IMG/VR virus record: IMGVR_UViG_3300032897_000001
Location: 1 to 64,000 of that record
Source: a virus
Reading direction: 5' to 3' (one strand)
DNA length: 64,000 nt
The stretch's first letter is position 1, and each line of letters opens with the position of its first letter. Below are positions 3,064 through 32,644 of this stretch, in pieces. Both the position numbers and the translations under genes were made by a program. The notes beneath the pieces were generated by a model that had not been told where the DNA came from, searched no databases, and saw only the letters and a list, made by a program, of their open reading frames with translations.

Positions 3064-4521
3064 GTGGTGTACACAGAATCAGAAGATTCTAACATAGATA
3101 GTGTGCTCAATTCGAGGGAAGCTAACACAGATCAGCCGCGCATTGATCGCCGTTATTCGTGGAAGTTGCACCCCACAGCACAGCAAGATGCGCGCTTACA
3201 CGAACAGGCCCGCATGTGCACCGAATTGTGGAACGCACTACTCGAAATTGATTTTATATTACAGAATGTCCGGGCATGGGTTTTTGATAAGGACGCCTTG
3301 GGGCCATTGGTATTCGATTTAGCGGGGAACCTGCGGGTTGTGTCCTTGGCAGATATTTTGCTGCGCAGGCAATACGGCTTGCGCACACGTGCAGAGCATC
3401 TGGTTACTGCGATCGGTGCCGCTGGTGCAATTCAGTATCAGCCGGGACAAGATATCCGCACACGGTTGCCTAGCGCGTATGATCGCGGGTACTGGATCAC
3501 GCAGTTACGCGACTTGCAGCCCGAATGGCTGGCATTGTCAACATGGACACCTAGACAGGTTAGCGAAAATCTCGCCAAGGCATGGAAACACTGTTTTACG
3601 CCCCGCGCTAAGCGCATTCCCGGAAGAAAGTACGGCGCACCGCGGTTCAAATCGCTGGCGAATGCCTTTGCCATACCCCATCGGTTTGCCAGTGGCTGCC
3701 GGTTGGAACATGCCGGTATGCACGAACGCAGTTGGTGGCTTTATCTAGACGGTGTTTCCGATCAGAAGCTGTGGCGCCGTGGGCGCGGACGCGGCGACGT
3801 GTGGGCACGCGGAAAGCTGCCATCACCAGCGCTTAAGTGGACGGACGCGGATGTGCGTCATGTTGATGGACACTGGGAAATATCCGCTGCTGTTGTCATG
3901 GAACAGCGCCGCACTTTGATCGGGCGCGGTATTCCGATCACGGTTGAGTTCTGTGTCATTGGTGGTCTTGCACTGGTCAATAACGAGCAAGTGGAACTTG
4001 TCGAATTGATAAAGGCACAGGAACTGGACGTTAAACATGCAAATATGCAGCGTGAATTTGATCGGAATTGGCCACGCAACAAGCGCTGGACCGATGATGA
4101 ATGGAATAACCGTTGTGAGGATAAGGCCGAAATCGGCAGGCTTGCGTCACACATCGCCCGAGTGCGCCGCAACGCACTCCATGTGTGGACTAAGCAACTG
4201 GTAGAACGCGCAAGTGTGTTGACTATTATTAAACCGGCTTCTATCAAGGATTTTACACAGACGGCCCGCGGAAATGTGAAAAACTGGGGTGCGGCCGTTG
4301 AGATAGTGTCGGAAATTAACCGCGACACGCTATCACATGCGCCGGCTATGGCTGTGCAGATGCTGGAATACAAGGCGGAAGAACTTGGCATTCCGTGTCA
4401 AGTCATTGAAGATGATACACCAGAAATTTCCATTAGTAAGGCATTTGTTGCCAGTCGTAAGGTATCCCGACGCAGCGCGCGCGAGACAAAGAAAGGCGTG
4501 AGTGAAAATGAGAAAGATTAA
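3064..4521 (+). CDS. TnpB/Cas12-family RNA-guided protein, predicted nuclease-dead and C-terminally truncated
   Basis: N-terminal RRYSWKLHPTAQQ...LWNALLE (IS605 OrfB HTH-like), GAPRFKS and INRDTLS...QMLEYKAEELG. The RuvC-I position reads ITVEFC instead of GIDLG and RuvC-II reads TIIKP instead of xEDL. No CxxC zinc finger and no RuvC-III DxNAA. Exact start codon uncertain. Confidence 0.85.
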   Translation: MVYTESEDSNIDSVLNSREANTDQPRIDRRYSWKLHPTAQQDARLHEQARMCTELWNALLEIDFILQNVRAWVFDKDALGPLVFDLAGNLRVVSLADILLRRQYGLRTRAEHLVTAIGAAGAIQYQPGQDIRTRLPSAYDRGYWITQLRDLQPEWLALSTWTPRQVSENLAKAWKHCFTPRAKRIPGRKYGAPRFKSLANAFAIPHRFASGCRLEHAGMHERSWWLYLDGVSDQKLWRRGRGRGDVWARGKLPSPALKWTDADVRHVDGHWEISAAVVMEQRRTLIGRGIPITVEFCVIGGLALVNNEQVELVELIKAQELDVKHANMQREFDRNWPRNKRWTDDEWNNRCEDKAEIGRLASHIARVRRNALHVWTKQLVERASVLTIIKPASIKDFTQTARGNVKNWGAAVEIVSEINRDTLSHAPAMAVQMLEYKAEELGIPCQVIEDDTPEISISKAFVASRKVSRRSARETKKGVSENEKD

Positions 4522-5252: not shown

Positions 5253-7676
5253 CAACAACGAAGAACTAACGGAGAAATACTATGGACGCACTAGACTTAG
5301 CCGGGTTGTTGATGCTGATTGGCGCCCTGTTTATCGGGTTTTGCTGGGGAAAGACGGGGAACAGCGGCGGTTTTGTCGCCGGCTGCCTGATCTTTTTCGG
5401 CGGTTGGGTTATATTTTGCCTAGGATGGCTGGCAACATATGTGGGCGGGACGGCGCTGATTATTGCGCCCGCACCCGTGTTTGTCATTGCGTTTTTCGCC
5501 ACGCTGAACAAGAAACACAACCCATATCGTGAGGACTAAGGAGGTTGACATGTGTGGGGTACGGGTAAGTGATGTTCGCCCGGGAACGAAGCTGATTGGC
5601 GATGGCTTGTGCTGCACAACTGCGAACGTTCCCATGGAAGTGCGCAAAGAAGGCGGGCGCCTTTATGTGCTTTGTGAAGACGGACGGCATTGGCTGGTGC
5701 CACAGGATGGCCGTTACGTCGGGTTTCGGTTGGCTTGATAACTTGATAAGGAGTGGCCACAACATGAGTTGGAAACTGATCGGACGCTTTACCCACATCA
5801 AGCATGATGGTGATTACTTGATGTCCGTCGTACCAGACGACGATAAATGGGAGTGGCGCTTGCTTCACAGCAAGAATGTCCTTGCAAGCGAGAGCGGATA
5901 CGACACCAAGGAAGACGCACAGGATGCTGTGATGAAACAGCTTACCAAATACAGGGAACTCGAATGATGTCCTTTCGTATGATAGCACTTGTGGCCATTC
6001 TGGCCCTTCCTACCTGCAGCGCACGCGCTGCAGACTGCCAGAATAAGGACTACTCCCCTTATTCCGAAGATCACGCCTGTGTTAATAAGTATTACGAGGT
6101 TATGGAGATTGCCCATAACCTTGGCCGTGTCCTCTATTATGAGGAAAAGTGCGGTCTGCAATATGAACCAACGGCTGTTGCCCGTTACATCCGGGAACAC
6201 ACACCGAATGATCGCTTTGATTTTTCCGGGTGGGTGAACACCGCAGCCAGTTATGAAAGGACCATGGAGAAGACTTTTGATAAAGGTTCTGTGAGTCCGA
6301 ATACTCTGCTTGCTGTATGCACAAGCATACAGATGGCTGCAAAGCATTATGGGTTTGTGAAATGAACAAAGAAGGCGCCACACGTCGTGTGAAAACAACT
6401 TGGGAATTGATGTTCGAAGGCTTGGCGTGCCCGCATTGTGGGCTTATCAGGATGCACAAGCACTATTACCCTGGTCCGATTGACACCGCCCTGCAGCACG
6501 ATGAAAACGGCAACTATTGGACATGGAGTCCCCGGGACAATGAACAAGAACCCATCTGAGCAAGCCGTGTTATCCGTTGCCGAAGGAATACACGGCACGT
6601 GGTACTATCATCTATGGGTTCAGCCAAAGAATTCTTCCGGTGGAAAAGCGTTGTGTGGTGCCCAGGTGATGGTCACAAGCATTCCCATGTCGGCATGGGG
6701 AACACGGACGCATCTCAATGAGCGTTGGTGCAGTCTGTGTAAGAAGCTGACAGAGCCGCGGGTTGATCCGCAGGCTGTGGCAGCATTTGCAAATACTGAT
6801 GTGCCACTACCCACCAATCTGCCTGAACGCCTGGAAGAAGCCGCAACACGTCTAGACACAGACGATGACTTGCCTTTCGGATTCGTGCAGGTTTTTCGAG
6901 AGGCAGCGGCACGTATCAGAGAACTTGAGAAGCAGTGCAACCGGCTGGAATTACTTGTGCCCAGCCCGCAGGGGGAGGATACGGGTTTTGTGTGAGAAAA
7001 CGAGCCGTGCTCTTGAGCAGGCGATTCGTAAATGGGAAGCAATTGTTGCGGGTTCAGGCCGCGATCTAGGACCTGAAAATTGTGCTCTATGCCAGTTATT
7101 CTATTATAAAAACTGTGTTGGCTGTCCTGTTTATCAAAGCACGGGTCTGCGTTATTGTGCAGGTTCGCCATATGAAGAGTGGTCCTATTATGGGTATAGG
7201 TCCGCCACAGATGGCGGCGATATTGTCCCCTATGAACTTGCCAAGAAAGAGTTGGAGTTTTTGAAATCTCTTAGAAATCCTGTAACTGACTTTAGTAAGG
7301 GAGTCCCCCATACATAGGGTAATAAACCATCGGAAGGGATAAGAACGTCATGGATGAGCAAACGAAACAGGCTCTTGAAGGATCAATCGACAAGTGGGAA
7401 GCCATCGTTGCTGGCACCGGTGTTGACCGGGGTCGTCATAACTGTCCGTTGTGTAGGCTATTTTACATCCTTGGATGTAAAGGCTGCCCGGTTTACCTGA
7501 AAACCGGCGCACAGAATTGCAGGAAAACGCCTTACGAAAGATGGAAAATTCACGGTTACCGGCTTTATGGCTGTAGCACGATTGAAGGGACAAAAATTAT
7601 GGAGATGGCGCGGGATGAACTGGAGTTTTTGAAATCGCTGCGGGAACCGTCTGCCAACGTTTCGTAGGAGGTTCTC

Positions 7677-11431: not shown

Positions 11432-12100
11432 ATGACAGAGCAACAACAGCGTTTGGATTTTTGGGCACAGTGCACACCGCTTCTTAGGAAGCTGGCCGCG
11501 GAAGGCGTCACCGCGCCCAAAATCGCCATGCGTTTGTTTGAAGAGACAGGAACCCCGATTTCCTCGCGATCGGTACGGGAGAAGGCACAGCGTCTCGGAA
11601 TCAAACTCGTCTCAACGATTTCGGAATCCCCGTGGGATGGCAAGACTGAACAGCTTAAGGAAATGTGGGAACAGGGCGTAAGTGCATCACAGATCGGTGC
11701 TAAGCTTGGCTTGTCCCGTAGTGCAATTATTGCCAAGGTGCATAGGCTGGGTTTGCCACGGCGCATGTGGGTGACGCCAGCGATTAAACCACAACTCGCG
11801 CCACAGCGGCCATTGTCGAATGTCAAGCCTGCAACTAAGGCATTGCCGAAACCTGCGGCAAAGCCTGTGTCGCAGGTTAAGTCTGATGATACGGACTTTC
11901 CCGTAGAAAGTGGACATGGGGAATCCGACACTACAGAGACGCGTACATCAAAAAACTGCTCTATCATGGAGTTGGACAGCCAGCACTGTCGCTGGCCTAT
12001 CGGGAAGCCCGGGACACCGGATTTTTGCTATTGTGGAGAAACACCGGTACGCGGCAATGTGTATTGTGCTAAGCACCATCGCATGGCGTACAATCTGTAA
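11432..12100 (+). CDS. gcrA: GcrA-family cell-cycle transcriptional regulator
   Basis: LKEMWEQGVSASQIGAKLGLSRSAIIAKVHRLGL plus C-terminal CRWPIGKP...FCYCG...YCAKHHRMAY. Carries an extra N-terminal HTH-like segment. Confidence 0.9.
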   Translation: MTEQQQRLDFWAQCTPLLRKLAAEGVTAPKIAMRLFEETGTPISSRSVREKAQRLGIKLVSTISESPWDGKTEQLKEMWEQGVSASQIGAKLGLSRSAIIAKVHRLGLPRRMWVTPAIKPQLAPQRPLSNVKPATKALPKPAAKPVSQVKSDDTDFPVESGHGESDTTETRTSKNCSIMELDSQHCRWPIGKPGTPDFCYCGETPVRGNVYCAKHHRMAYNL

Positions 12101-16637: not shown

Positions 16638-16707
16638 GGCAGGTGTGTCGGGATTTAGGCGGGGTTTGGCCGGGCAAGCCTGGGTCGATTGAGGTGTGGC
16701 CGGTTAA
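16638..16707 (+). repeat. Dispersed GGY-NN pentamer unit
   Basis: ggca ggtgt gtcgg gattt a ggcgg ggttt ggccg ggcaa gcctg ggtcg attga ggtgt ggccg gttaa; intergenic. Confidence 0.65.
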
Positions 16708-17161
16708 AAACTTTAAAAACAAGTGCCCCGGCAGGGTCTAATCTGCCGGGGCAATCTTGGTGTGAATCCGCCGCACTTCATCATAGCGCCGCGATGCACG
16801 CGCACGTAGAATGTGGCGCTGAAATAAATTTCTCAGCGGCGTTTTCGGAATACCGACATCATTGGCGAAACGATCCAACTGATGCGCGCCCGCGGCATTG
16901 GCGAGTTCTGCCAGTTCTGCCTCCAGTGCGTGATATTGTGGCATCAGTTCTCGGGCGGCACGCACCGCCTTGTCATATGCCGTGTCATCCATGGTATATC
17001 CCCTTACATAGACCCGCCGCAACACCGCGGCTCATGGCTAGTGTATAGCCTATGTGCGCGAGGGTGGCGAGAGGGATTTTTGAATTTTTTTTCAAAAAAG
17101 CATTTACATAGCGACGCGACGCATGCTAGACGTGTTTTCAGAACAACGGGGAGACAAATAG

Positions 17162-19396: not shown

Positions 19397-20020
19397 ATGA
19401 AGAACGACACATCTGCACAGGACGCAGCAACTTTCCTTGTGTCTCTAGAGATGCGCGTTGCTGATCCTGCACCAAACAATGACGCAACACGGCGGGTCCG
19501 CGATCTGGTGGCATTGGCCCTTGAATATGACAGAGAAAAAGCCGCGTTAGAGGACAGGCTAGAACACATCAATGCAGCCAGGATCAATATCCGACACAAG
19601 GAGTTGCCGCTGGCCATGGACACAGCGGGGTTGCTTGATACGACTTTCCCCGCGGAAAAGGGCGTTCCCGAAGCGCGAGTTTGCTTGAAGCCTTATTTCA
19701 AGGCGAATATTGCGGCGGACTGGGATGAGAGCAGGCGCCGCGCCGCGTTTGATCACTTAGCCGAATTGGGCGCCCAGGACTTGATCAAGACCGAAGTCAC
19801 GGTTTATTTTCCGCGAGAACAGCGAAAAGCAGCCGTTGACTTTGCCGCTGAAATCCGCGATCGGTATGGCGACATTCGCGTGCAGATCTCAGAAAATGTC
19901 CCGTGGATGACGTTGACGAGTTGGCTGAAGGAGCGCGTAAAGAAAAACGTGGTGACAGCGAAGACGCTGGAATTAATTGGAGGTATTATTGGACGGATAG
20001 TTGATATCAGGATTAGGTAA
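19397..20020 (+). CDS. Conserved phage replication-region protein
   Basis: 207-aa ORF with coiled-coil N-terminus and a VPWMTLTSWLKER motif. Confidence 0.6.
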   Translation: MKNDTSAQDAATFLVSLEMRVADPAPNNDATRRVRDLVALALEYDREKAALEDRLEHINAARINIRHKELPLAMDTAGLLDTTFPAEKGVPEARVCLKPYFKANIAADWDESRRRAAFDHLAELGAQDLIKTEVTVYFPREQRKAAVDFAAEIRDRYGDIRVQISENVPWMTLTSWLKERVKKNVVTAKTLELIGGIIGRIVDIRIR

Positions 20021-20137
20021 GGCAGGCGTGGTCGGGCGTGGCGTGGATGGGCATGGTGCGGCTGGGTGAGGCAGGCGGGGTATGGCTCGTTTCGGTGCGG
20101 CTAGGCGCGGTGGGACCGGGCACGGTTAGGCAGGCCG
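20016..20137 (+). repeat. GGY-NN pentamer array A: 2 units of 9 and 11 pentamers, punctuated by GGCA
   Basis: Strict 5-nt phase, reset by GGCA at 20021, 20070 and 20129. Confidence 0.9.
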
Positions 20138-20168
20138 CTAATTTTCAACTTTAACCTGGAGAAGACAA

Positions 20169-20987
20169 ATGGCAAAAAAAGCAGAACTAACAACCGTGAT
20201 CTTTGATGAAATCAAGACGCGGCGGGTTATTGCCCACATCGTGGGCACAAGTCCACTAATCATGCACCGATTCGCGTTCAAGGCATGGCAGGAACTGCTT
20301 TGTCCGTCGCCGCGGAAGAACGCCGCGGAGCGTGCACAGACGCTTAAGCACAACCCACTGGAGGAATATCGCGGCTGTTTTTACAGGAATCGCAATCCCA
20401 ACGCACCAGCACTATTTCATTTGCCAAATGGAATGCCACATCAGAGCATTGCGGCTGCGGCGCTTGATATTCCGGGAACAACGCGCGCGGCCATGGAAAG
20501 GTGGACGCAAGTCGTTGACATTAATATTGATCTTTATGGCGTTCCACAATTGTTCATGGCAATGGTCAGGAACAGCGACATGAACAGAACACCGGACGTT
20601 CGCACGCGCCCAATTTTCCCGCGATGGGCATGCAAGCTGGAAATTGAGTACAAGCAGAACCCGCTGACAGATCAGAACGTCCTCAATTTGATTGCTGCGG
20701 CGGGTCTGATCGTTGGTTTTGGCGATTGGAGACCGCAAAAAGGTGGTCCTTATGGAAAATACCGCCTTGCTGAAGCACGCGATACTGAGTTCTTGGATAT
20801 CGTCAAGCGAGAGGCACGCGCACCGCAACAAGCAGCATACGATCAGCCGGCATACTATGACGATGACACGGCGGATTTGATGCTGTGGTTCACAGAGGAA
20901 ATGGCACGTCGTCGGCAGGATGACCCGGAAAGCCCGGGCAACTCGTTTGACGATGGTATCGAAATCGCTCCGGGCGGTTTGCAGTAA
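20169..20987 (+). CDS. Stand-alone Cas7-like/RAMP-fold RNA-binding protein
   Basis: N-terminal strand IAHIVGTSPLIMH, HLPNGMPHQSIAAAA helix, VRTRPIFPRW region and C-terminal glycine-rich loop AGLIVGFGDWRPQKGGPYGKY, in the order seen in RAMP proteins. No other cas genes nearby. Confidence 0.75.
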   Translation: MAKKAELTTVIFDEIKTRRVIAHIVGTSPLIMHRFAFKAWQELLCPSPRKNAAERAQTLKHNPLEEYRGCFYRNRNPNAPALFHLPNGMPHQSIAAAALDIPGTTRAAMERWTQVVDINIDLYGVPQLFMAMVRNSDMNRTPDVRTRPIFPRWACKLEIEYKQNPLTDQNVLNLIAAAGLIVGFGDWRPQKGGPYGKYRLAEARDTEFLDIVKREARAPQQAAYDQPAYYDDDTADLMLWFTEEMARRRQDDPESPGNSFDDGIEIAPGGLQ

Positions 20988-21046
20988 CACCATTTACGAA
21001 AATGCTTCCCATGGTGCTTGTGTTTTGCGTTCGCCGTGGGAAGTCA

Positions 21047-21370
21047 GGCAAGGTTAGGCAGGCGGGGTCCGGTTGGGTCCGATATGGCTGGGTAATGTGG
21101 GGCACGGCATGGTGGGGCAGGCAGGGCTGGGTGAGCATTGGCAAGGCTGGGTCCGACATGGCAAGGCAGGCATGGTGCGGCAGGTTTCGGCAGGGCATGA
21201 TAAGTCTTGGCAAGGCAGGCGGGTTCTGGTGGGGTGGTTCACGGCGGGTTTCGGCTAGACGTGGCAGGCGGGGCATGCTCGGGTAGGGTAGGGCAAGATG
21301 CGGCATGACATGGCAAGGCAGGCTTGGTGCGGCTAGATCGGGCATGATCTGGCAAGGCGTGTAACGGCAA
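21047..21370 (+). repeat. GGY-NN pentamer array B: 6 units of 11, 9, 9, 9, 10 and 8 pentamers
   Basis: GGCA punctuators at 21057, 21116, 21165, 21214, 21263 and 21317, preceded by a hairpin at 21005-21043. Confidence 0.92.
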
Positions 21371-21385
21371 AATCGGGGAAAACAA

Positions 21386-21904
21386 ATGGCAGTGAGTCAA
21401 GAGGATCTACAGAAAGCAATTGATGAAATCGCCGAAAAAGGAGGGCTGTCCAGTAAAGCTGTAACAACACGCATGGTCGTGGATGCGGCAAGGAACGAAA
21501 ATCACATTCTACACGATGAGTTTGATTGGAACGACGCTTCGGCAGCCGACAAACACAGGCTGGCCGTTGCAGCCAGCCTGATCCGAAAATATCAGTATGT
21601 TGGTTTTGACGTGAAACGAGAGCCTATCGTTGCGCGGGGTTATGTCTACAGTCCGCCATCCCGGGCATATGTGCCGCTCTCGCGCACGATACAGGATGCA
21701 AAACGTTCTCACGCGCTCTTGCTAAGCGAAATTTCCGCCATCACTGGCCGGGTTCGAAGTGCACAGAGGATCGCGGATGTTCTATTCATGCGGCAAGAAC
21801 TTGATCGGGCGTTGCACAACGTGATTGATGAGTTGCTGTTTGAAATTCCGGCGCCCGGTGCGGTGCGGAAAGTGGTGGGTGTTGAAGAGGGGGATGAGGA
21901 ATAG
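21386..21904 (+). CDS. Conserved phage protein between pentamer arrays B and C (candidate accessory factor)
   Basis: GGGGA RBS; motif VVDAARNENHILHDEFDWNDASAADKHRL...LIR. Confidence 0.75.
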   Translation: MAVSQEDLQKAIDEIAEKGGLSSKAVTTRMVVDAARNENHILHDEFDWNDASAADKHRLAVAASLIRKYQYVGFDVKREPIVARGYVYSPPSRAYVPLSRTIQDAKRSHALLLSEISAITGRVRSAQRIADVLFMRQELDRALHNVIDELLFEIPAPGAVRKVVGVEEGDEE

Positions 21905-22054
21905 GCATGGCAGGTGTGGCATGGCCGGGCGTGTTATGGTCCGGTGTGATATGGCAGGCATGGCAAGGCGGGACAGGATAAGGCGGGGTATGGCAGGCAT
22001 GGCCTGATTGGGCATGGTGAGGTGGGGCGGGATGGGGTATGGCAGGCGGGGTTT
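21904..22054 (+). repeat. GGY-NN pentamer array C: 3 units of 8, 7 and 9 pentamers
   Basis: GGCA punctuators at 21909, 21953, 21992 and 22041. Confidence 0.9.
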
Positions 22055-22565
22055 TACACAGTAAAACTGTATTTCACAATTGTCTGGAGACAATCATGGA
22101 AGAAGTTTGGACTCAAATCGGTGACGGCCCATTGAAAAAGGTGGGAGCACTTCGGCAAAACATGCGGAAACCGTTTTCCGTATGGTTGGCACATCACGGT
22201 GTGCGCATTGAAAGTGTTGAAAAAATCTTCTGGTCTGAGTCAATCAAGGCGTATATCGTCAAGATTGACCATCCCCCACAGCACAGCGTGTCCCCAGGGA
22301 GACATTGAAAATGGCTATCTCACAAAAAGCGTTCATGATCGCCCTGGGTGTTGCCGCGGCAACTGCAGGCTATATTGCAGGCACGGCACAGAGCGATATA
22401 GTCAGCGGATTCCGCCATAGCCGGTCTCGCGGGGATATCAGCGATGATGCGCGTGAAATGCCTGTTGCACCGCGGCAACCTTCTCGCAGTGTGAAATGCA
22501 CAGGCAGTATGTTTAATCAACATCCCAATTGTGGCCCCATGCGTCCGGGACCGTGGGATTAACAG

Positions 22566-22937
22566 ATGATCCGGTGTAACGGGCAACTGTTTATTAATCG
22601 TAAAACAGGTGTTGTCCGGAGCGGGGAATCTGTGGTCTGCTTTAAGCCGGCAGGTATCAGATTCAAAGTGTTCTGTCATTTGGTAATGGGACCACACATT
22701 ACAGCAGAACAGTTGTTCTGTAAGATCTACTCTGACAGAGAAGACGGCGGACCGTTAGCAGGACACAGCATAATCAATGTACACATCTCACAATTGAGAC
22801 CCGTCTTTGCTAAACTGAACTTGACACTAGGCCATTTATACGGTCCGCCGTGTAAATGGTGGTTGGAAATCAAACAAGCGGGAGAAACGAAATGGCAAGA
22901 ACACCTAGACAGCGAAAACTGGGAGACAGTGACGTGA
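22566..22937 (+). CDS. Winged-helix (OmpR C-terminal-like) DNA-binding protein
   Basis: KIYSDREDGGP...IINVHISQLR motif. Confidence 0.6.
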   Translation: MIRCNGQLFINRKTGVVRSGESVVCFKPAGIRFKVFCHLVMGPHITAEQLFCKIYSDREDGGPLAGHSIINVHISQLRPVFAKLNLTLGHLYGPPCKWWLEIKQAGETKWQEHLDSENWETVT

Positions 22938-24109
22938 TCATCACCGAAACCGCTACTGATGCTTTTGTTGATACCATCACGGAACATGAGACTGCGGAGA
23001 TATCTGCGGGAACACAGGTGATGGTCGCGCCGGAAACCGCGCCCTTGGCTATTGTGGATGACAATACCGCGGCGAATGCCGTTGATTTTTTCGACGACTT
23101 GGAGCAGATTTCCGAAGGCCGCGGTGTGTCCCGTGCCGCGGAAGACATCATCATCCCCAGTCTGTATGTGCTGCAGGGACTGTCTCCACAGGTGGACCCG
23201 CAGAATCCTGCCTATATCGAAGGTGCCCGGCCCGGAGATATCTGGTTGAAGAATTTTCGCACACCTGTAGTGCGCGGCAATGTCGGGTTCCTCTTCCAGC
23301 TTTGTGGGTTCTACACGGACTGGTTTGAGTGGATTCCGCGCACGCGTGGCGGTGGCTTTGTCGCCGTGCATCCGTCTGTTGTTCCTGTGAGGAACAACCA
23401 GGGGCGTGTTGTTGCACTGCGCACGCCTGATGGCACCATGGCAAAGGAAATGCCTGATCCGCGTGATCCAACCGGAAAGAAGAAGTTTTGGCAAACACCG
23501 GGTGATAATGAGTTGTCGGAGATGAGACATCACATCGGTTTCATTATGGACAAGAACGGTACGTTCTTTCCCTATGCAATGAACCTGACTTCCACTGGGC
23601 ACACTGCCTCGAAACAGCTTATGGCCACCTTGGGCGTGCAGTTTCTGCCCAATGGGCGCCCGCTGGATAGCTACGCGAAGCTGTACAAGTTCACGACGTT
23701 CCAGCGGGAACGCAATGGGAAAAAGTGGTATTCGTTCCAGCATGCGGATGCGACTTTGGCGGACATCGTTCCCGGCACCTATTATATTGACGATACCGGG
23801 CGGGTGATCGAAACACGTAACGGTGAACTCGTGAAGATTGCCGCCGATAAGTCGTGGGTACAGCGTGACAGCACGGTGCCCGAATATCACACGCGGTTGC
23901 GGACAGGGCTCTATGTGGACGCAGTAGGCATTACCCGGGGTAAGATGCTATTTGACGCCATCAATGGTGGGCGCCGTGTTGAAGTTGATGCTGAGGGCGT
24001 ATCCGGCGCCAATGAAGAGCAGTTGGCGGAGAATGTTCGTCAATCCAACAACAATGCGCCGGGTTACGAAGATGGTGATCCGGGGTACGACATGGATGTG
24101 CCGTTTTAA
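22892..24109 (+). CDS. Putative phage ssDNA-binding/annealing protein
   Basis: IIPSLYVLQGLSPQV...GARPGDI motif, acidic tail ending MDVPF, and location in the replication module. Confidence 0.55.
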   Translation: MARTPRQRKLGDSDVIITETATDAFVDTITEHETAEISAGTQVMVAPETAPLAIVDDNTAANAVDFFDDLEQISEGRGVSRAAEDIIIPSLYVLQGLSPQVDPQNPAYIEGARPGDIWLKNFRTPVVRGNVGFLFQLCGFYTDWFEWIPRTRGGGFVAVHPSVVPVRNNQGRVVALRTPDGTMAKEMPDPRDPTGKKKFWQTPGDNELSEMRHHIGFIMDKNGTFFPYAMNLTSTGHTASKQLMATLGVQFLPNGRPLDSYAKLYKFTTFQRERNGKKWYSFQHADATLADIVPGTYYIDDTGRVIETRNGELVKIAADKSWVQRDSTVPEYHTRLRTGLYVDAVGITRGKMLFDAINGGRRVEVDAEGVSGANEEQLAENVRQSNNNAPGYEDGDPGYDMDVPF

Positions 24110-28582: not shown

Positions 28583-29500
28583 ATGATCTATATGGGTTCG
28601 AAGGCGAGATATGCCGAAGAAATCATTGCTATTGCAACAGCGCACAGGAAGCCAAACCAGCCTTGGGTGGAACCATTTGTCGGCGGCGGCAACATAATAT
28701 GCCGTGTTCCCGCGCAACAGGGTCCACGTATTGGCGGGGATGTCAATTGGCGTATGATCGAACTATTAGACGCGATCGGTAATCAAGGCTGGGTGCCTCC
28801 CGAGAATGTGACGGAAGAACAGTACAAACATATCAAGGAAAATCCTGATTCGTATCCCCCGGAACTGGTGGCGTTCGTCGCGACGGCGGTTTCATTCGGT
28901 GCAAAATGGTTCGCAGGATACGCGCGCGGATCTGTAGATTATGCCGCCAATGGCGCTAAACAGGCTCTCCGAGAGGCGCCGCTTTTGCACGGTGCGAAGT
29001 TCGTTTATGCCCGATACGATGAACTTAGTATCCCACGGGATTCCATCATATACTGTGATCCTCCCTACACAGGAACTACAGGCTATGGCGGAGCCAAGAC
29101 GGATATCGATATAGGAGATGATCTAGCACTTAACACGTGGAACCGTGCCGCCTTTTGGCGGTGGGCAGATAAGATGGTGGCTGCGGGACACGACGTGTTC
29201 GTGTCGGAATACACGGGACCGCCTGCCAGCATCTATAAACCGTCTGCGGAACTTAAGCGCTTGCGTGCCGAAGCGGGCGAACGATATCGTATTGTGCAGA
29301 ATGACAAGTCGTCGCCCGAAGCATTACACACGGCATTCTCTGCTTTGCAGGCAATAGACGAGAGGATCAGTAAAGAAGCCGAAAAAGCAGCCGCACGGTG
29401 GGAAGTGCTGTGGCAGAAAGAAGTTGTCGGCGATTTTGATGCGCGCGGCGACAATAAACGAGAGATTGAGAAGCTTTTTCATAGGAGGGCGGGAACGTGA
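28583..29500 (+). CDS. D12-class N6-adenine DNA methyltransferase
   Basis: YMGSK, EPFVGGG and IYCDPPY motifs. Confidence 0.88.
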   Translation: MIYMGSKARYAEEIIAIATAHRKPNQPWVEPFVGGGNIICRVPAQQGPRIGGDVNWRMIELLDAIGNQGWVPPENVTEEQYKHIKENPDSYPPELVAFVATAVSFGAKWFAGYARGSVDYAANGAKQALREAPLLHGAKFVYARYDELSIPRDSIIYCDPPYTGTTGYGGAKTDIDIGDDLALNTWNRAAFWRWADKMVAAGHDVFVSEYTGPPASIYKPSAELKRLRAEAGERYRIVQNDKSSPEALHTAFSALQAIDERISKEAEKAAARWEVLWQKEVVGDFDARGDNKREIEKLFHRRAGT

Positions 29501-30613: not shown

Positions 30614-30624
30614 TTCCCGAATCA

Positions 30625-30673
30625 GGCAAGGCATGTTGTGGTGTGGTGAGATAAATCGGGGTAAGGCAGGATG
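30625..30673 (+). repeat. Dispersed GGY-NN pentamer unit between ssb and the polymerase gene
   Basis: ggcaa ggcat gttgt ggtgt ggtga gataa atcgg ggtaa, then the punctuator ggca. Confidence 0.75.
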
Positions 30674-32644
30674 GCAAGCCGCGAACAACGGTATGAGTCT
30701 CGCGGCCAGATGGGACTGGGATTTTCAATAGAGGAAATAACAAGGGTTCCGCAATCCAACTGGGTTGCGCCCGATCCGTCTACATGGCCTGACAGGCTTG
30801 TAGGAGACATCGGGATTGACACAGAAACCCACGACTTAGGCTTGAATGCCAAACAAGGCGCGGGCTGGGCGTGGCGTGGCGGCGGGGAAGTTGTTGGCTA
30901 TTCCATCACTGCCGACAACTTCTCTGCTTATTTGCCCGTGGGACACGAAGGCGGCGGCAACTTGGATCGGAACCAAGTCCGCCGCTATCTTAACCATGTA
31001 CTTGCTGACACAAAGCAACGCAAGATTTTTGCCAATGCCGGATATGACATACCATGGGCTGAAAACGATGGCGTAAAAATCGCTGGCCCTGTCATAGACA
31101 TTCAAATGACAGAAGCGCTGCTTGATGAATACCGGCGCTCTTATTCCCTGGAAAATATTGCCCAGGACCGTTTAGGCCGCGGTAAGAATGAAGCGATGTT
31201 GGCGGATGCTGCGAAGGCTTTTGGATACGATCCAAAAGGCGAATTGTGGCGCCTGCATGCCAAATTTGTCGGTCCTTATGCGATCGAAGATTCTTCACTC
31301 CCCCGAGACATTTGGAATGTGCACAAACCTCTGATTGAAAAAGAGGGTCTTACTCGTATCTGCGATCTGGAACATGCATTGCTGCCGATGTACGCTGACA
31401 TGCGGCGCCGCGGTGTACGTGTTGACTTGGATCGGGTTGACCAATTGAAAACACGGTTCCGGGAAGATGTGCAGCACGAAATTGCGCAGATCAAGGATTC
31501 TACGGGCATAGATGTCGCTCTGTGGGAACCACAGAGCGTCGCACGTGTTTTGGATTATGTGGGTATCAAATACGATGTCACGGCTAAGACTCGGCAACCC
31601 TCCATAAAGAATGAACTGCTCAAAGCAACAGATCACTGGATCGCGAAAGCACTGCTCCGTGCCCGTGAAAAAGATAAACTTATCGGCACGTTTCTAGACG
31701 GGCAGTTACTTGGTAAGTGCCATGATGGCCGCGTGCACGGGTCCATTAATCCGCTGAAATCCGATGACGGGGGAACAGTTACCGGCAGAATTTCAATGTC
31801 GGACCCTAACCTGATGTTCATTCCTGCGCGCACTGCGGAAGGAAAACTAATCCGCGCGTGTCTTATCCCCGAGGAAGGTGAGGAATGGATATCGGTCGAT
31901 TACAGTCAACAGGAAGTACGGCTTCTGGTACACTTCGCTATTGTAGCATCCCGATACGTAAAATTCCCTCGGGAACTGCGGGAACGGTTGGCAACCGCTG
32001 TGGAGGCACAGCGCCGTTATCTAGAAGACCCGAACCTGAATTATCACAAATTTGTCGCGGAAATCACCGCGCTGGCCTATTCTATGGCCAAAGGCTTGAA
32101 TTTCGCGATCATCTATGGCCGCGGCATTGAAGAGACATCGCGCGCACTCGGCATAAGCTATGATGAAGCCAAGCGGCTGTTTAGCCAACACCGGGAAAAA
32201 ATGCCGTTTGCCCGGGCTATGGCTGACGCAGCACAGCGTATCGTCCGGGAACGTGGCTATATTACCACACTCTTAGGAAGACGGCAGAGATTCCCGTTTT
32301 GGGAGCCAGACGATTGGAATAAGCGCACCGATCGGTTGCTTCATGAACAAGAGGCACGTATGATGTGGCCGAATCAAAAGCTGGTGCGGGCCAGAATCCA
32401 TAAAGCATTGAATTCGGTTGTACAGCCATCGGCTGCGGACCAAATGAAGAAGGCAATGCTTGATATCTGGAATGCCGGCTATGGTGGGAGTGTCTTAATC
32501 CAGGTACACGATGAATTGAACCTATCCACGGGCAGTCGTAAGATTGCCAACAATGTCGCGGAAATCATGCGATCCACAGTGGAACTGGAAGTCCCTGTGT
32601 TAACAGACATCGCATATGGAAAGAACTGGGGTGAAGCAACATGA
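30671..32644 (+). CDS. Family A DNA polymerase with a 3'-5' exonuclease domain
   Basis: IDTET, TVTGRIS, DYSQQEVR (motif A), KGLNFAIIYG (motif B) and QVHDEL (motif C). Confidence 0.93.
   Translation: MASREQRYESRGQMGLGFSIEEITRVPQSNWVAPDPSTWPDRLVGDIGIDTETHDLGLNAKQGAGWAWRGGGEVVGYSITADNFSAYLPVGHEGGGNLDRNQVRRYLNHVLADTKQRKIFANAGYDIPWAENDGVKIAGPVIDIQMTEALLDEYRRSYSLENIAQDRLGRGKNEAMLADAAKAFGYDPKGELWRLHAKFVGPYAIEDSSLPRDIWNVHKPLIEKEGLTRICDLEHALLPMYADMRRRGVRVDLDRVDQLKTRFREDVQHEIAQIKDSTGIDVALWEPQSVARVLDYVGIKYDVTAKTRQPSIKNELLKATDHWIAKALLRAREKDKLIGTFLDGQLLGKCHDGRVHGSINPLKSDDGGTVTGRISMSDPNLMFIPARTAEGKLIRACLIPEEGEEWISVDYSQQEVRLLVHFAIVASRYVKFPRELRERLATAVEAQRRYLEDPNLNYHKFVAEITALAYSMAKGLNFAIIYGRGIEETSRALGISYDEAKRLFSQHREKMPFARAMADAAQRIVRERGYITTLLGRRQRFPFWEPDDWNKRTDRLLHEQEARMMWPNQKLVRARIHKALNSVVQPSAADQMKKAMLDIWNAGYGGSVLIQVHDELNLSTGSRKIANNVAEIMRSTVELEVPVLTDIAYGKNWGEAT

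Follow-up and report, generated by a model that had tools for sequence, protein, structure and literature searches.

The window, a stretch of 64,000 nucleotides, belongs to an IMG/VR record of 100,794 bp (100.8 kb) that CheckV rates as a virus of 100% completeness and that carries virus-type genes for a primase, a DNA polymerase, a helicase, a baseplate and a tail fibre. The host of this uncultivated tailed phage is probably an alphaproteobacterium. Our analysis covered protein homology, fold, array grammar, synteny and in-silico targets. The features are listed below; array coordinates come from a dynamic-programming parse and a unit table.

16638..16707, plus strand: orphan GGCA-initiated tract, ~12 pentamers plus one extra base, at 3.3 kb distance from vipr
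19397..20020, plus strand: Pam3 gp33-like gene (DUF7307; PF23984, E 7.7e-11; phrog_2378)
about 20016..20137, plus strand: array A
from 20016, plus strand: leader of array A, short, ending in GGCAG
20025-20074, plus strand: unit A1, 10 pentamers
20074-20133, plus strand: unit A2, 12 pentamers
20169..20987, plus strand: vipr, encoding a 272-aa Cas7-like RAMP
21004..21043, plus strand: hairpin between vipr and array B (13-bp stem, MFE -23.6 kcal/mol, z -1.63)
21046..21370, plus strand: array B
from 21046, plus strand: leader of array B, 3 pentamers, then six guide units
21061-21120, plus strand: unit B1
21120-21169, plus strand: unit B2
21169-21218, plus strand: unit B3
21218-21267, plus strand: unit B4
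21267-21321, plus strand: unit B5
21321-21370, plus strand: unit B6
21386..21904, plus strand: vap-like partner gene, 172 aa (phrog_15946, E 7.9e-14)
21903..22054, plus strand: array C
from 21903, plus strand: leader of array C, preceding unit C1
21913-21957, plus strand: unit C1
21957-21996, plus strand: unit C2
21996-22045, plus strand: unit C3, NN string AT CT TG AT GA GG GG GG AT
after 22045, to 22054, plus strand: remnant of array C, 2 pentamers
22856..24109, plus strand: Pam3 gp34-like gene (PF23977, E 5.9e-28; phrog_2402)
30620..30674, plus strand: weaker GGY tract (tract scan, at least 6/10)

Array A, vipr, the hairpin, array B, the 172-aa gene and array C follow one another in this order, every element on the plus strand, and these coordinates confirm the layout described in the first-pass annotation. 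The Pam3 gp33-like gene is the left boundary of the inserted cassette and the gp34-like gene the right boundary of the inserted block; no homologue of the former adjoins vipr in the relatives. That annotation had also claimed that cas1/5/6/8/10 are missing nearby; no Cas family was found among the scanned ORFs that neighbour vipr. An Rfam search over 16-23 kb, with E values up to 1, gave no known RNA family (the single sub-threshold row is a chance match) and no hammerhead in the window arrays. The promoter and terminator scan returned nothing beyond shuffled expectation. The hairpin has no T-run 3' of its stem and was not called by the terminator scan; it may serve in processing or attenuation.

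The 272-aa protein comprises an RRM core, a thumb with R147, a G-loop (G183, G185, D186, W187, R188) and a C-terminal helical extension of ~65 aa that belongs to the Vipr of the window clade. Both motifs that had been read as RAMP hallmarks are present, SPLIMH at residues 28-33 and GFGDWRPQKGGPYG at residues 183-196. A Cas7-like identity had been proposed, and it is supported by the fold, which is common to the Cas7 backbone subunits of Class 1 CRISPR, and by a phmmer match to PDB chain 36pp_D ('SUSP1 Vipr protein', E 2.2e-4). The family profile aligned to SUSP1 Vipr with a probability of 96.7% (hhalign, E 3.4e-10), and the tblastn matches, in genes of SUSP1, SUSP2 and Felixounavirus, fall on the same motif. 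In SUSP1, residues H17, R138, D177, W178 and R179 read GGY (10.64898/2026.04.26.720927). These align with H33, R147, D186, W187 and R188 of the window protein, of which H33, R147, W187 and R188 are invariant in six aligned sequences, SUSP1 and Gordonia phage Ecliptus included. D186 (D177 in SUSP1) is an aspartate in every aligned sequence except Ecliptus, where it is a glutamate.

Assignment of the locus to class 1 CRISPR-Cas, as a type III/VII effector with its repeat-spacer array and cas operon of several subunits (Cas10 or Cas5, Cas11, Cas6), was rejected on the 5-nt repeat unit, the one RAMP gene and the lack of a Cas family in the flanks. The Class 1 systems (Csm3, Cmr4, type VII Cas7, gRAMP) have CRISPR repeats and several subunits, whereas the window has a single RAMP with no Cas1/2/5/6/8/10/11 nearby. 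The locus is minimal, with vipr and an adjacent accessory gene, no cas operon and no CRISPR array attached. The geometry differs as well: VIPR advances by 5 nt, of which 3 nt are sequestered, with a 1-nt target skip, and Class 1 CRISPR advances by 6 nt and flips one base.

The pentamer arrays were examined by a window-wide scan for tracts with at least 6/10 GGY in phase. Five places were found, namely arrays A-C and two weaker tracts (16638-16712 and 30620-30674), all on the plus strand and none on the minus strand; 20 shuffles of the window gave a maximum of 5/10, and a scan of the entire 100.8-kb contig had the same outcome. Arrays A-C occupy intergenic gaps, so that their proposed strand bias and placement both stand. 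The 5-base spectral power is 6-9x the mean in the arrays vs 0-1x in both genes. Among 102 pentamers, G fills position 1 in 98% and position 2 in 76%, and C or T stands at position 3 in 97%. The information content is 0.14 bits at position 4 and 0.06 bits at position 5, and 15 of the 16 possible NN dinucleotides are present. The description of a near-constant GGY followed by a freely varying dinucleotide is thus accurate. Canonical GGY is found in 76/102 pentamers; the remaining 26 deviate mostly at G2. The arrays had also been called strictly 5-nt periodic. The period was recovered but not the strictness, since the phase slips by -1 at every 4-nt GGCA (13 slips in the window arrays).

Could such tracts be G-rich simple repeats made by slippage, or codes for Gly/Trp-rich peptides, that lie beside a RAMP-like gene by accident? 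Mechanical ORFs do overlap the arrays (for example 21002-21286), but no reading frame can survive a 5-nt period that slips by -1, and the association with vipr persists from Proteobacteria-type phages to actinophages. Moreover, no two of the 11 guide units have five or more in-register NN dinucleotides in common, and the units are therefore not slippage copies. We consider this explanation close to negligible.

The eleven guide units comprise 8-12 pentamers each and each terminates in GGCAG, the final G of which is the first G of the following unit (a 1-nt overlap, GGCAG|G). The units abut at these junctions with no non-repeat tail between them. GGCA accounts for 13/13 phase resets in the window, 15/16 and 16/18 in two relatives (L009 and L017), and none in SUSP1; judging by these parses, phase resets throughout the clade are predominantly GGCA. 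Punctuation by GGCA with a shared G fits the 'staggered vrRNA arrays' of other VIPR types, described in fig. S18 of 10.64898/2026.04.26.720920, in which neighbouring vrRNAs share one nucleotide, the end of one being the start of the next. By their grammar, the window arrays are of this staggered kind, punctuated by GGCA and devoid of the type II 3' tail. In that paper, experimental confirmation is stated for two architectures, the ribozyme-interspersed and the single-vrRNA one, staggered arrays not being among them.

The first-pass annotation had suggested checking whether homologues of the protein are flanked by pentamer tracts. Same-strand tracts were found at 17/19 IMG/VR homologue loci, the two exceptions being cut by a contig end, as well as in Ecliptus and SUSP1; no opposite-strand tract was seen in any of the 21 loci examined. 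The association of vipr with tracts spans Proteobacteria-type phages to actinophages, and the clade contains at least 584 clusters at 90% identity. The closest relatives (P0002) have a Vipr 73% identical to that of the window, and a scan of genome contigs with the Vipr profile gave two distant MAG matches only.

A reading of the tracts as DNA-level elements, where the RAMP-like protein or its partner would have binding arrays, regulatory sites or recombination sites, would suit the finding that no strong sigma-70-like promoter precedes the arrays. It would also suit the search of public runs, in which the probable source metagenome was the sole run with this DNA and no RNA run was listed. The strict strand bias in the 21 loci argues that the arrays yield an RNA product instead, the homologous SUSP1 tracts were experimentally shown to be Vipr-bound RNAs, and by the skip rule described below there are foreign genes that fit the hypervariable NN strings. 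We hold such a DNA-level role to be highly improbable.

The partner gene encodes a protein with a conserved N-terminal LH.EF.W motif and a long C-terminal helical hairpin. A homologue lies directly 3' of vipr in 15/19 IMG/VR loci, and another adjoins vipr in Ecliptus (gp20). Two pairs of these loci, L012/L013 and L014/L015, seem to be duplicates. No sequence similarity to vap1 of SUSP1 was detected, and identity with vap1 was rejected on that ground; the partner is, as far as sequence goes, a member of a vap family other than SUSP1 vap1, which was the only one of the published vap1-6 compared. An AF2 model gave no clear PDB match, and its structure atlas rows were confined to viral families of hypothetical proteins, the winged-helix rows being weak. 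By analogy with the SUSP1 work, the partner may act as a helper.

In Ecliptus (OP820472), gp19 is a Vipr homologue (33% identity, E 4e-22) and gp20 is homologous to the 172-aa partner (29% identity, E 9e-12). As in the window, vipr, array and vap follow in this order, and the 230-nt GGY-NN array contains GGCA slips. Unlike the window phage, Ecliptus is a 56-kb actinophage with a single array, and its Vipr lacks the C-terminal extension. Both Ecliptus genes are annotated merely as hypothetical proteins. Relatives of gp19-gp20 are found in Mycobacterium and Gordonia phages.

The resemblance to 'VIPR' that had been suggested was correct, VIPR having been published and the 272-aa protein matching the SUSP1 chain. 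The literature check for which that annotation had asked spoke against novelty: VIPR was published between April and October 2026, and the kind of system is therefore not new. Several traits are shared with VIPR type II, known from Escherichia phage SUSP1 and a Pseudomonas fulva prophage (bioRxiv 10.64898/2026.04.26.720920, 10.64898/2026.04.26.720927 and 10.64898/2026.10.15.759431). These include a G-loop GDWRP, the thumb arginine and the beta-1 histidine, guides that consist of some 10-12 GGY-NN repeats and lie on the gene strand, a phage two-gene cassette with arrays upstream and downstream, and one-base-skip, wobble-aligned targets in rival mobile elements, vipr genes included. However, the window Vipr is only ~24% identical overall to that of type II, with similarity detectable only around the thumb and G-loop, and it has the extra C-terminal extension. 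An invariant 3' tail closes every vrRNA of type II, taking the form of a pseudoknot in SUSP1, whose arrays have no GGCA slips, whereas the window arrays have neither 3' tail or pseudoknot nor a leader for each guide, and their guides abut through the shared G. There are ~11 guides in the window vs four in SUSP1, and the window partner is unrelated in sequence to vap1. Type II membership was rejected, given the missing 3' tail and a partner that is not vap1-like.

Taken together, the locus is very probably a VIPR (Viral Interference Programmable Repeat) system with guides from GGCAG-punctuated arrays. VIPR guides are tandem GGY-NN (YNNGG) pentamers, about 9-16 per guide. The Vipr filament has one protomer per GGY-NN repeat, and the NN dinucleotides read double-stranded DNA, skipping every third base (10.64898/2026.04.26.720920, 10.64898/2026.04.26.720927). 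The target is double-stranded DNA, which is silenced rather than cleaved (VIPR papers). Transcription, processing, filament formation and silencing at the window locus would be expected by analogy with SUSP1. The three arrays would be transcribed along with the genes, and the transcripts cut or delimited at GGCAG|G to give ~11 vrRNAs of 8-12 GGY-NN repeats. One Vipr protomer would bind each repeat, with G1 read by H33 and D186, G2 held by R147 and W187, and the pyrimidine held by R188 and the neighbouring protomer. The filament would then present the NN dinucleotides for pairing with double-stranded DNA. With every third base skipped, a guide would read codon positions 1 and 2 and ignore the wobble base. 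Binding of the filament is predicted to block transcription of rival phage or prophage genes.

The skip rule was examined with 58 guides and 16 phage records (875 kb), comparing skips of 0-3 bases. With a one-base skip, two guides of related phages matched another phage's vipr at 18/18 and 21/22 specified bases and a third matched another phage's YqaJ/RecE-like exonuclease gene at 25/26, all wobble-aligned. Among guides that specify 18 bases or more, no match of similar quality arose in the 875 kb when 0, 2 or 3 bases were skipped. In silico, the published one-base-skip rule holds in the window clade.

Among the 11 window guides, C3 is the sole one with a predicted target. It has eight exact (18/18) one-base-skip matches in IMG/VR, all on the sense strand, at the ILCIDGGG(I/M) codons of CapV-like patatin phospholipase genes. 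Seven of the eight are in clear ORFs and wobble-aligned; the remaining one (L074) has an identical sequence and lies where a contig ends. The genes, assigned to patatin by PF01734, PADLOC PDLC00758 and NF041079, represent at least three lineages with a GC content of 39% to 67% and lie in other phages and proviruses. No patatin gene occurs in the phage's own genome. Chance agreement with a Gly-rich conserved motif has a probability of a few per cent, on a rough estimate. Together with the matches of the relatives' guides, these matches bear out in silico the earlier proposal that the NNs specify a gapped target in rival elements.

No target was found for the ten other guides; the collection scans sought exact matches and covered A1, A2, B1, B3, B5 and B6 of these. 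One-base-skip scans with A2 and B1 gave no match in viral or metagenome contigs, nor did those with A1, B5 and B6 in viral contigs. The single exact match of B3 is out of phase and was rejected as chance, as was the best match of the window guides in the 16 records (B4, 16/18 in G003), which is out of codon phase. Against five patatin-target records C3 alone matched; B6 showed a weak in-frame partial match (14/14, then breaks). No guide, read as a degenerate peptide, matched any of 120 Vipr homologues. No self-target of the window guides was found, no self-match reaching 80%, which agrees with other VIPR systems (VIPR paper).

With about a quarter of the pentamers non-canonical, some guide units may be decayed. 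As ten of eleven guides also lack a target in these collections, the whole cassette might even be retired, its genes intact but many of its guides drifted and its arrays relics. However, both ORFs are intact with conserved RNA-contacting residues, the G of position 1 and the pyrimidine of position 3 are retained at 97-98%, and internal degeneracy is frequent in vrRNAs according to the VIPR publication. C3 matches a conserved gene motif perfectly, and missing targets are expected if the rival elements are unsequenced, the more so with scans for exact matches. A retired cassette is thus very unlikely, and we retain the reading of the locus as a VIPR system.

The CapV-like patatin family is best known as a membrane-destroying effector of CBASS anti-phage immunity, and the genes matched by C3 are carried by prophages and large phages. 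C3 would be directed at the first codons (ILCIDGGG) of these genes. We propose tentatively, as a combined reading that is possible but rather doubtful, that C3 is a broad-spectrum protein-motif guide that, by skipping wobble bases, silences CapV-like patatin genes whatever their codon usage, and that GGCAG|G is a self-contained punctuation packing tail-less guides head to tail. If so, VIPR would serve the phage as a programmable weapon for anti-defence or anti-exclusion, besides its use against the replication of rival phages. A use of the wobble-skipping code would lie in the same 18 specified bases matching genes across the GC range above. On the evidence of independent environmental sequence, the published VIPR logic (Cas7-like filament, GGY-NN guides and DNA read with a one-base skip) extends to a large uncultivated clade, with vipr vs vipr, vipr vs recombination exonuclease and guide vs patatin catalytic-motif codons as candidate guide-target pairs. 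Compact arrays of this kind could aid the design of multiplexed VIPR guide cassettes.

Finally, the orphan tract at 16638 gave no match in a target search. It is located in the gap upstream of the primase gene (minus strand), and may be a solo guide.

The 272-aa protein, which the first-pass annotation took for a stand-alone RAMP and likened to viral GGY/NN-repeat systems named VIPR, is a RAMP of the Vipr kind. A Pfam search assigned it to no family, and in PHROGs it belongs to phrog_4652, a family of unknown function. A sequence search of the PDB gave a single match, 36pp_D 'SUSP1 Vipr protein' (E 2.2e-4, thumb and G-loop region), and a family profile of 31 sequences aligned with SUSP1 Vipr at an hhalign probability of 96.7% (E 3.4e-10). 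SUSP1 is an Escherichia phage with a characterised type II VIPR (Viral Interference Programmable Repeat) system. Its repeat-reading residues, H17 and D177 for G1, R138 and W178 for G2, and R179 for Y (10.64898/2026.04.26.720927), align with H33, D186, R147, W187, and R188 of the window protein, respectively. H33, R147, W187, and R188 are invariant from the window phage through the Gordonia phage Ecliptus (OP820472) to SUSP1, and the D186 position is E in Ecliptus. The window clade carries a C-terminal helical extension of ~65 residues, with no counterpart in SUSP1 and Ecliptus. Clustered at 90% identity, the family forms at least 584 groups, nearly all metagenomic.

The systems so named do exist in 2026 bioRxiv preprints: VIPR is described in 10.64898/2026.04.26.720920, with a cryo-EM companion study (10.64898/2026.04.26.720927); satellites, solo guides, and vipr-targeting guides are treated in 10.64898/2026.10.15.759431, and 99 VIPR-like clusters were recovered in 10.64898/2026.10.21.760802. 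In the published systems, Vipr is the only RAMP and combines an RRM core with a G-loop and a thumb; its guide RNAs (vrRNAs) hold 9-16 GGY-NN repeats, an accessory vap gene is present, the setting is mostly viral, and recognition of double-stranded DNA passes over one base in three, usually the wobble base (VIPR preprints).

Features of the VIPR block and of the genes used to place it
19397-20020, Pam3 gp33 homologue (PF23984), left flank of the block
from 20016, plus strand, array A, 5' of vipr, first element of the 20016-22054 block
20169-20987, plus strand, vipr, 272-aa ORF (ORF call)
21004-21043, plus strand, 13-bp hairpin between vipr and array B
between the hairpin and the 172-aa ORF, plus strand, array B, GGY-NN tract
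21386-21904, plus strand, partner gene, 172-aa ORF (ORF call)
after the 172-aa ORF, up to 22054, plus strand, array C, GGY-NN tract
22856-24109, Pam3 gp34 homologue (PF23977), right flank of the block
11432-12100 and 28583-29500, GcrA cell-cycle regulator homologue (PF07750, E 4e-35) and D12-class N6-adenine methyltransferase

A scan for at least 6/10 in-phase GGY recovered arrays A-C and two weaker plus-strand tracts (16638-16712 and 30620-30674), with no GGY-periodic tract on the minus strand by this criterion; 20 shuffled controls reached at most 5/10. The three tracts first noticed by reading, all on the plus strand, are confirmed. Among the 102 pentamers, G occupies the first position in 98% and the second in 76%, and a pyrimidine occupies the third in 97%; the fourth and fifth positions are close to random (0.14 and 0.06 bits), in agreement with the initial description of a near-constant GGY and a free NN. 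The 5-nt periodicity, described there as strict, is not continuous: the phase is reset 13 times, each by a 4-nt GGCA. Eleven units result (A1-A2, B1-B6, C1-C3), 8-12 pentamers long and each ending in GGCAG, the terminal G of which doubles as the first G of the following unit. The expectation that pentamer tracts flank homologues was likewise upheld: same-strand GGY tracts lie within 3 kb of vipr in 17/19 IMG/VR relative loci and opposite-strand tracts in 0/19, with two of the exceptions truncated by the contig end. Elsewhere in the clade, too, GGCA far outnumbers any other phase-reset unit (15/16 in L009, 16/18 in L017, 21/30 in L003, and 11/13 in L014, all IMG/VR loci). No GGCA resets were found in SUSP1, whose guides have a leader and a tail instead.

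Seven VIPR types have been published, with array architectures that include type II tails, 'staggered' (1-nt overlap), and ribozyme-separated forms; the architectures reported there as experimentally confirmed are the ribozyme-interspersed and single-vrRNA ones, and not the staggered arrays (10.64898/2026.04.26.720920). The shared G at GGCAG in the window and the GGCA grammar of the clade match this staggered form; the locus differs from type II VIPR, having neither the tail nor vap1. Judged from sequence, it shows every VIPR feature that can be examined in silico and is a staggered-array form of the published system. By analogy with the SUSP1 experiments, the locus would be transcribed, processed between GGCAG and the following G, assembled into filaments, and active in silencing.

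The 172-aa gene has a homologue directly 3' of vipr in 15/19 IMG/VR loci. Ecliptus has the same gene order as the window, with vipr (gp19), a 230-nt array, and a homologue of the partner (gp20; 29% identity, E 9e-12). The partner has no sequence relationship to SUSP1 vap1. Its model consists of a small N-terminal domain, which bears a conserved LH.EF.W motif, followed by a long helical hairpin, and structural comparison gave no convincing match; by analogy with vap1, it may act as a helper. Two loci, L018 (IMGVR_UViG_3300036791_000324) and L008 (IMGVR_UViG_3300031890_000019), encode Vipr homologues with 53-56% identity. Within 3 kb, L018 lacks a GGY tract and L008 has weak tracts only, and a partner-gene homologue was detected in neither; a variant repeat may be in use at these loci, or the arrays may have been lost.

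The one-base-skip code was examined with 58 GGCA-delimited guides from 16 phage records (875 kb); each guide was compared with every one of these records, arrays masked, under skips of 0, 1, 2, or 3 bases. For guides specifying 18 bases or more, strong matches arose from the one-base skip only. A guide of G002 (IMGVR_UViG_3300046838_000270) matches a YqaJ/RecE-like exonuclease gene of the related phage G001 at 25/26, and a G002 guide matches the vipr of another phage, G011, at 21/22, across MVRNSDINHTPD codons; a guide of G003 (IMGVR_UViG_3300036826_000261) agrees with that G011 vipr at 18/18, in antisense orientation, across FAEYRGAFY codons. The skipped base is the wobble position in all three. 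The AG that invariably closes GGCAG is unmatched in these three targets, so it seems to serve as punctuation and not as part of the guide. Wobble-aligned, vipr-targeting guides have been reported for the SUSP1 family (October 2026 preprint, 10.64898/2026.10.15.759431). The two G011 sites aimed at by these two phages (5587-5621 and 5803-5831) are the most conserved vipr motifs, MVRNSD.N.TPD and EYRGAFY; the window vipr differs from each at 4 specified bases, partly through AGR for CGN arginine codons.

For the window guides, no self-targets were found (best 14-16 of 20-24, control skips being as good). Exact collection scans gave no match for A1, A2, B1, B5, and B6 and a single, out-of-phase match for B3. 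Guide C3 (21996-22045) has 8 exact matches in IMG/VR, all on the sense strand at one site, codons about 4-13, encoding ILCIDGGG(I/M). Seven of the eight lie in wobble phase in clear patatin-like phospholipase ORFs; the eighth (L074) is identical in sequence and lies at a contig end. The target proteins match Pfam Patatin (PF01734), the PADLOC phospholipase effector model PDLC00758 (E 1e-75), and NCBIfam NF041079 'CBASS cGAMP-activated phospholipase' (2/4 above cut-off). The matches span at least three lineages, namely T4-like phages (39-41% GC), proviruses (61-64% GC), and a 222-kb phage (53% GC), between which the wobble bases vary and the 18 specified bases are constant. By rough estimate, a few per cent of random guides would coincide in phase with a motif this strongly conserved. 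The window phage itself lacks a patatin gene, and no other window guide matched the patatin-target records. CapV-like patatin genes of proviruses and large phages lie at L076:10371-11303, L075:1506-2555, L079:8767-9642, and L077:7181-8086; in the proviruses, the gene is near the element end, after tail-fibre-like genes. No Pfam or NCBIfam family was found in the upstream neighbour ORFs scanned, so that CBASS operon status is unsupported for these loci.

The VIPR principle is already published, and the window locus adds a member; useful, testable additions are the GGCA grammar shared across the clade, the guide-target pairs between phages, and the candidate anti-patatin guide.

The window covers the first 64 kb of a single 100,794-bp virus contig (51.8% GC). 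The VIPR module looks like an insertion into an early or replication region between two normally adjacent genes, because Pam3 gp33/gp34-type flanks are absent beside vipr in the relatives examined and the names suggest that gp33 and gp34 are adjacent in phage Pam3. The block also holds three small ORFs (22096-22937) with no annotation. GcrA occurrence serves as a host pointer, and the phage GcrA homologue with the D12 adenine methyltransferase suggests an alphaproteobacterial host.

The orphan plus-strand tract at 16638-16707, GGCA-initiated with ~12 pentamers and one extra base, sits in the gap upstream of a minus-strand primase gene, adjoining a strong hairpin (16724-16753). This tract, for which no target was found, may represent a solo vrRNA. 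A decayed guide or chance could explain the short, weak GGY periodicity at 30620-30674 (plus strand, 6/10 in phase), which includes GGCAAGGCA and has a 145-aa ORF on one side and the DNA polymerase gene on the other. A transposase-family match was obtained at 3064-4521 in the PHROGs scan.
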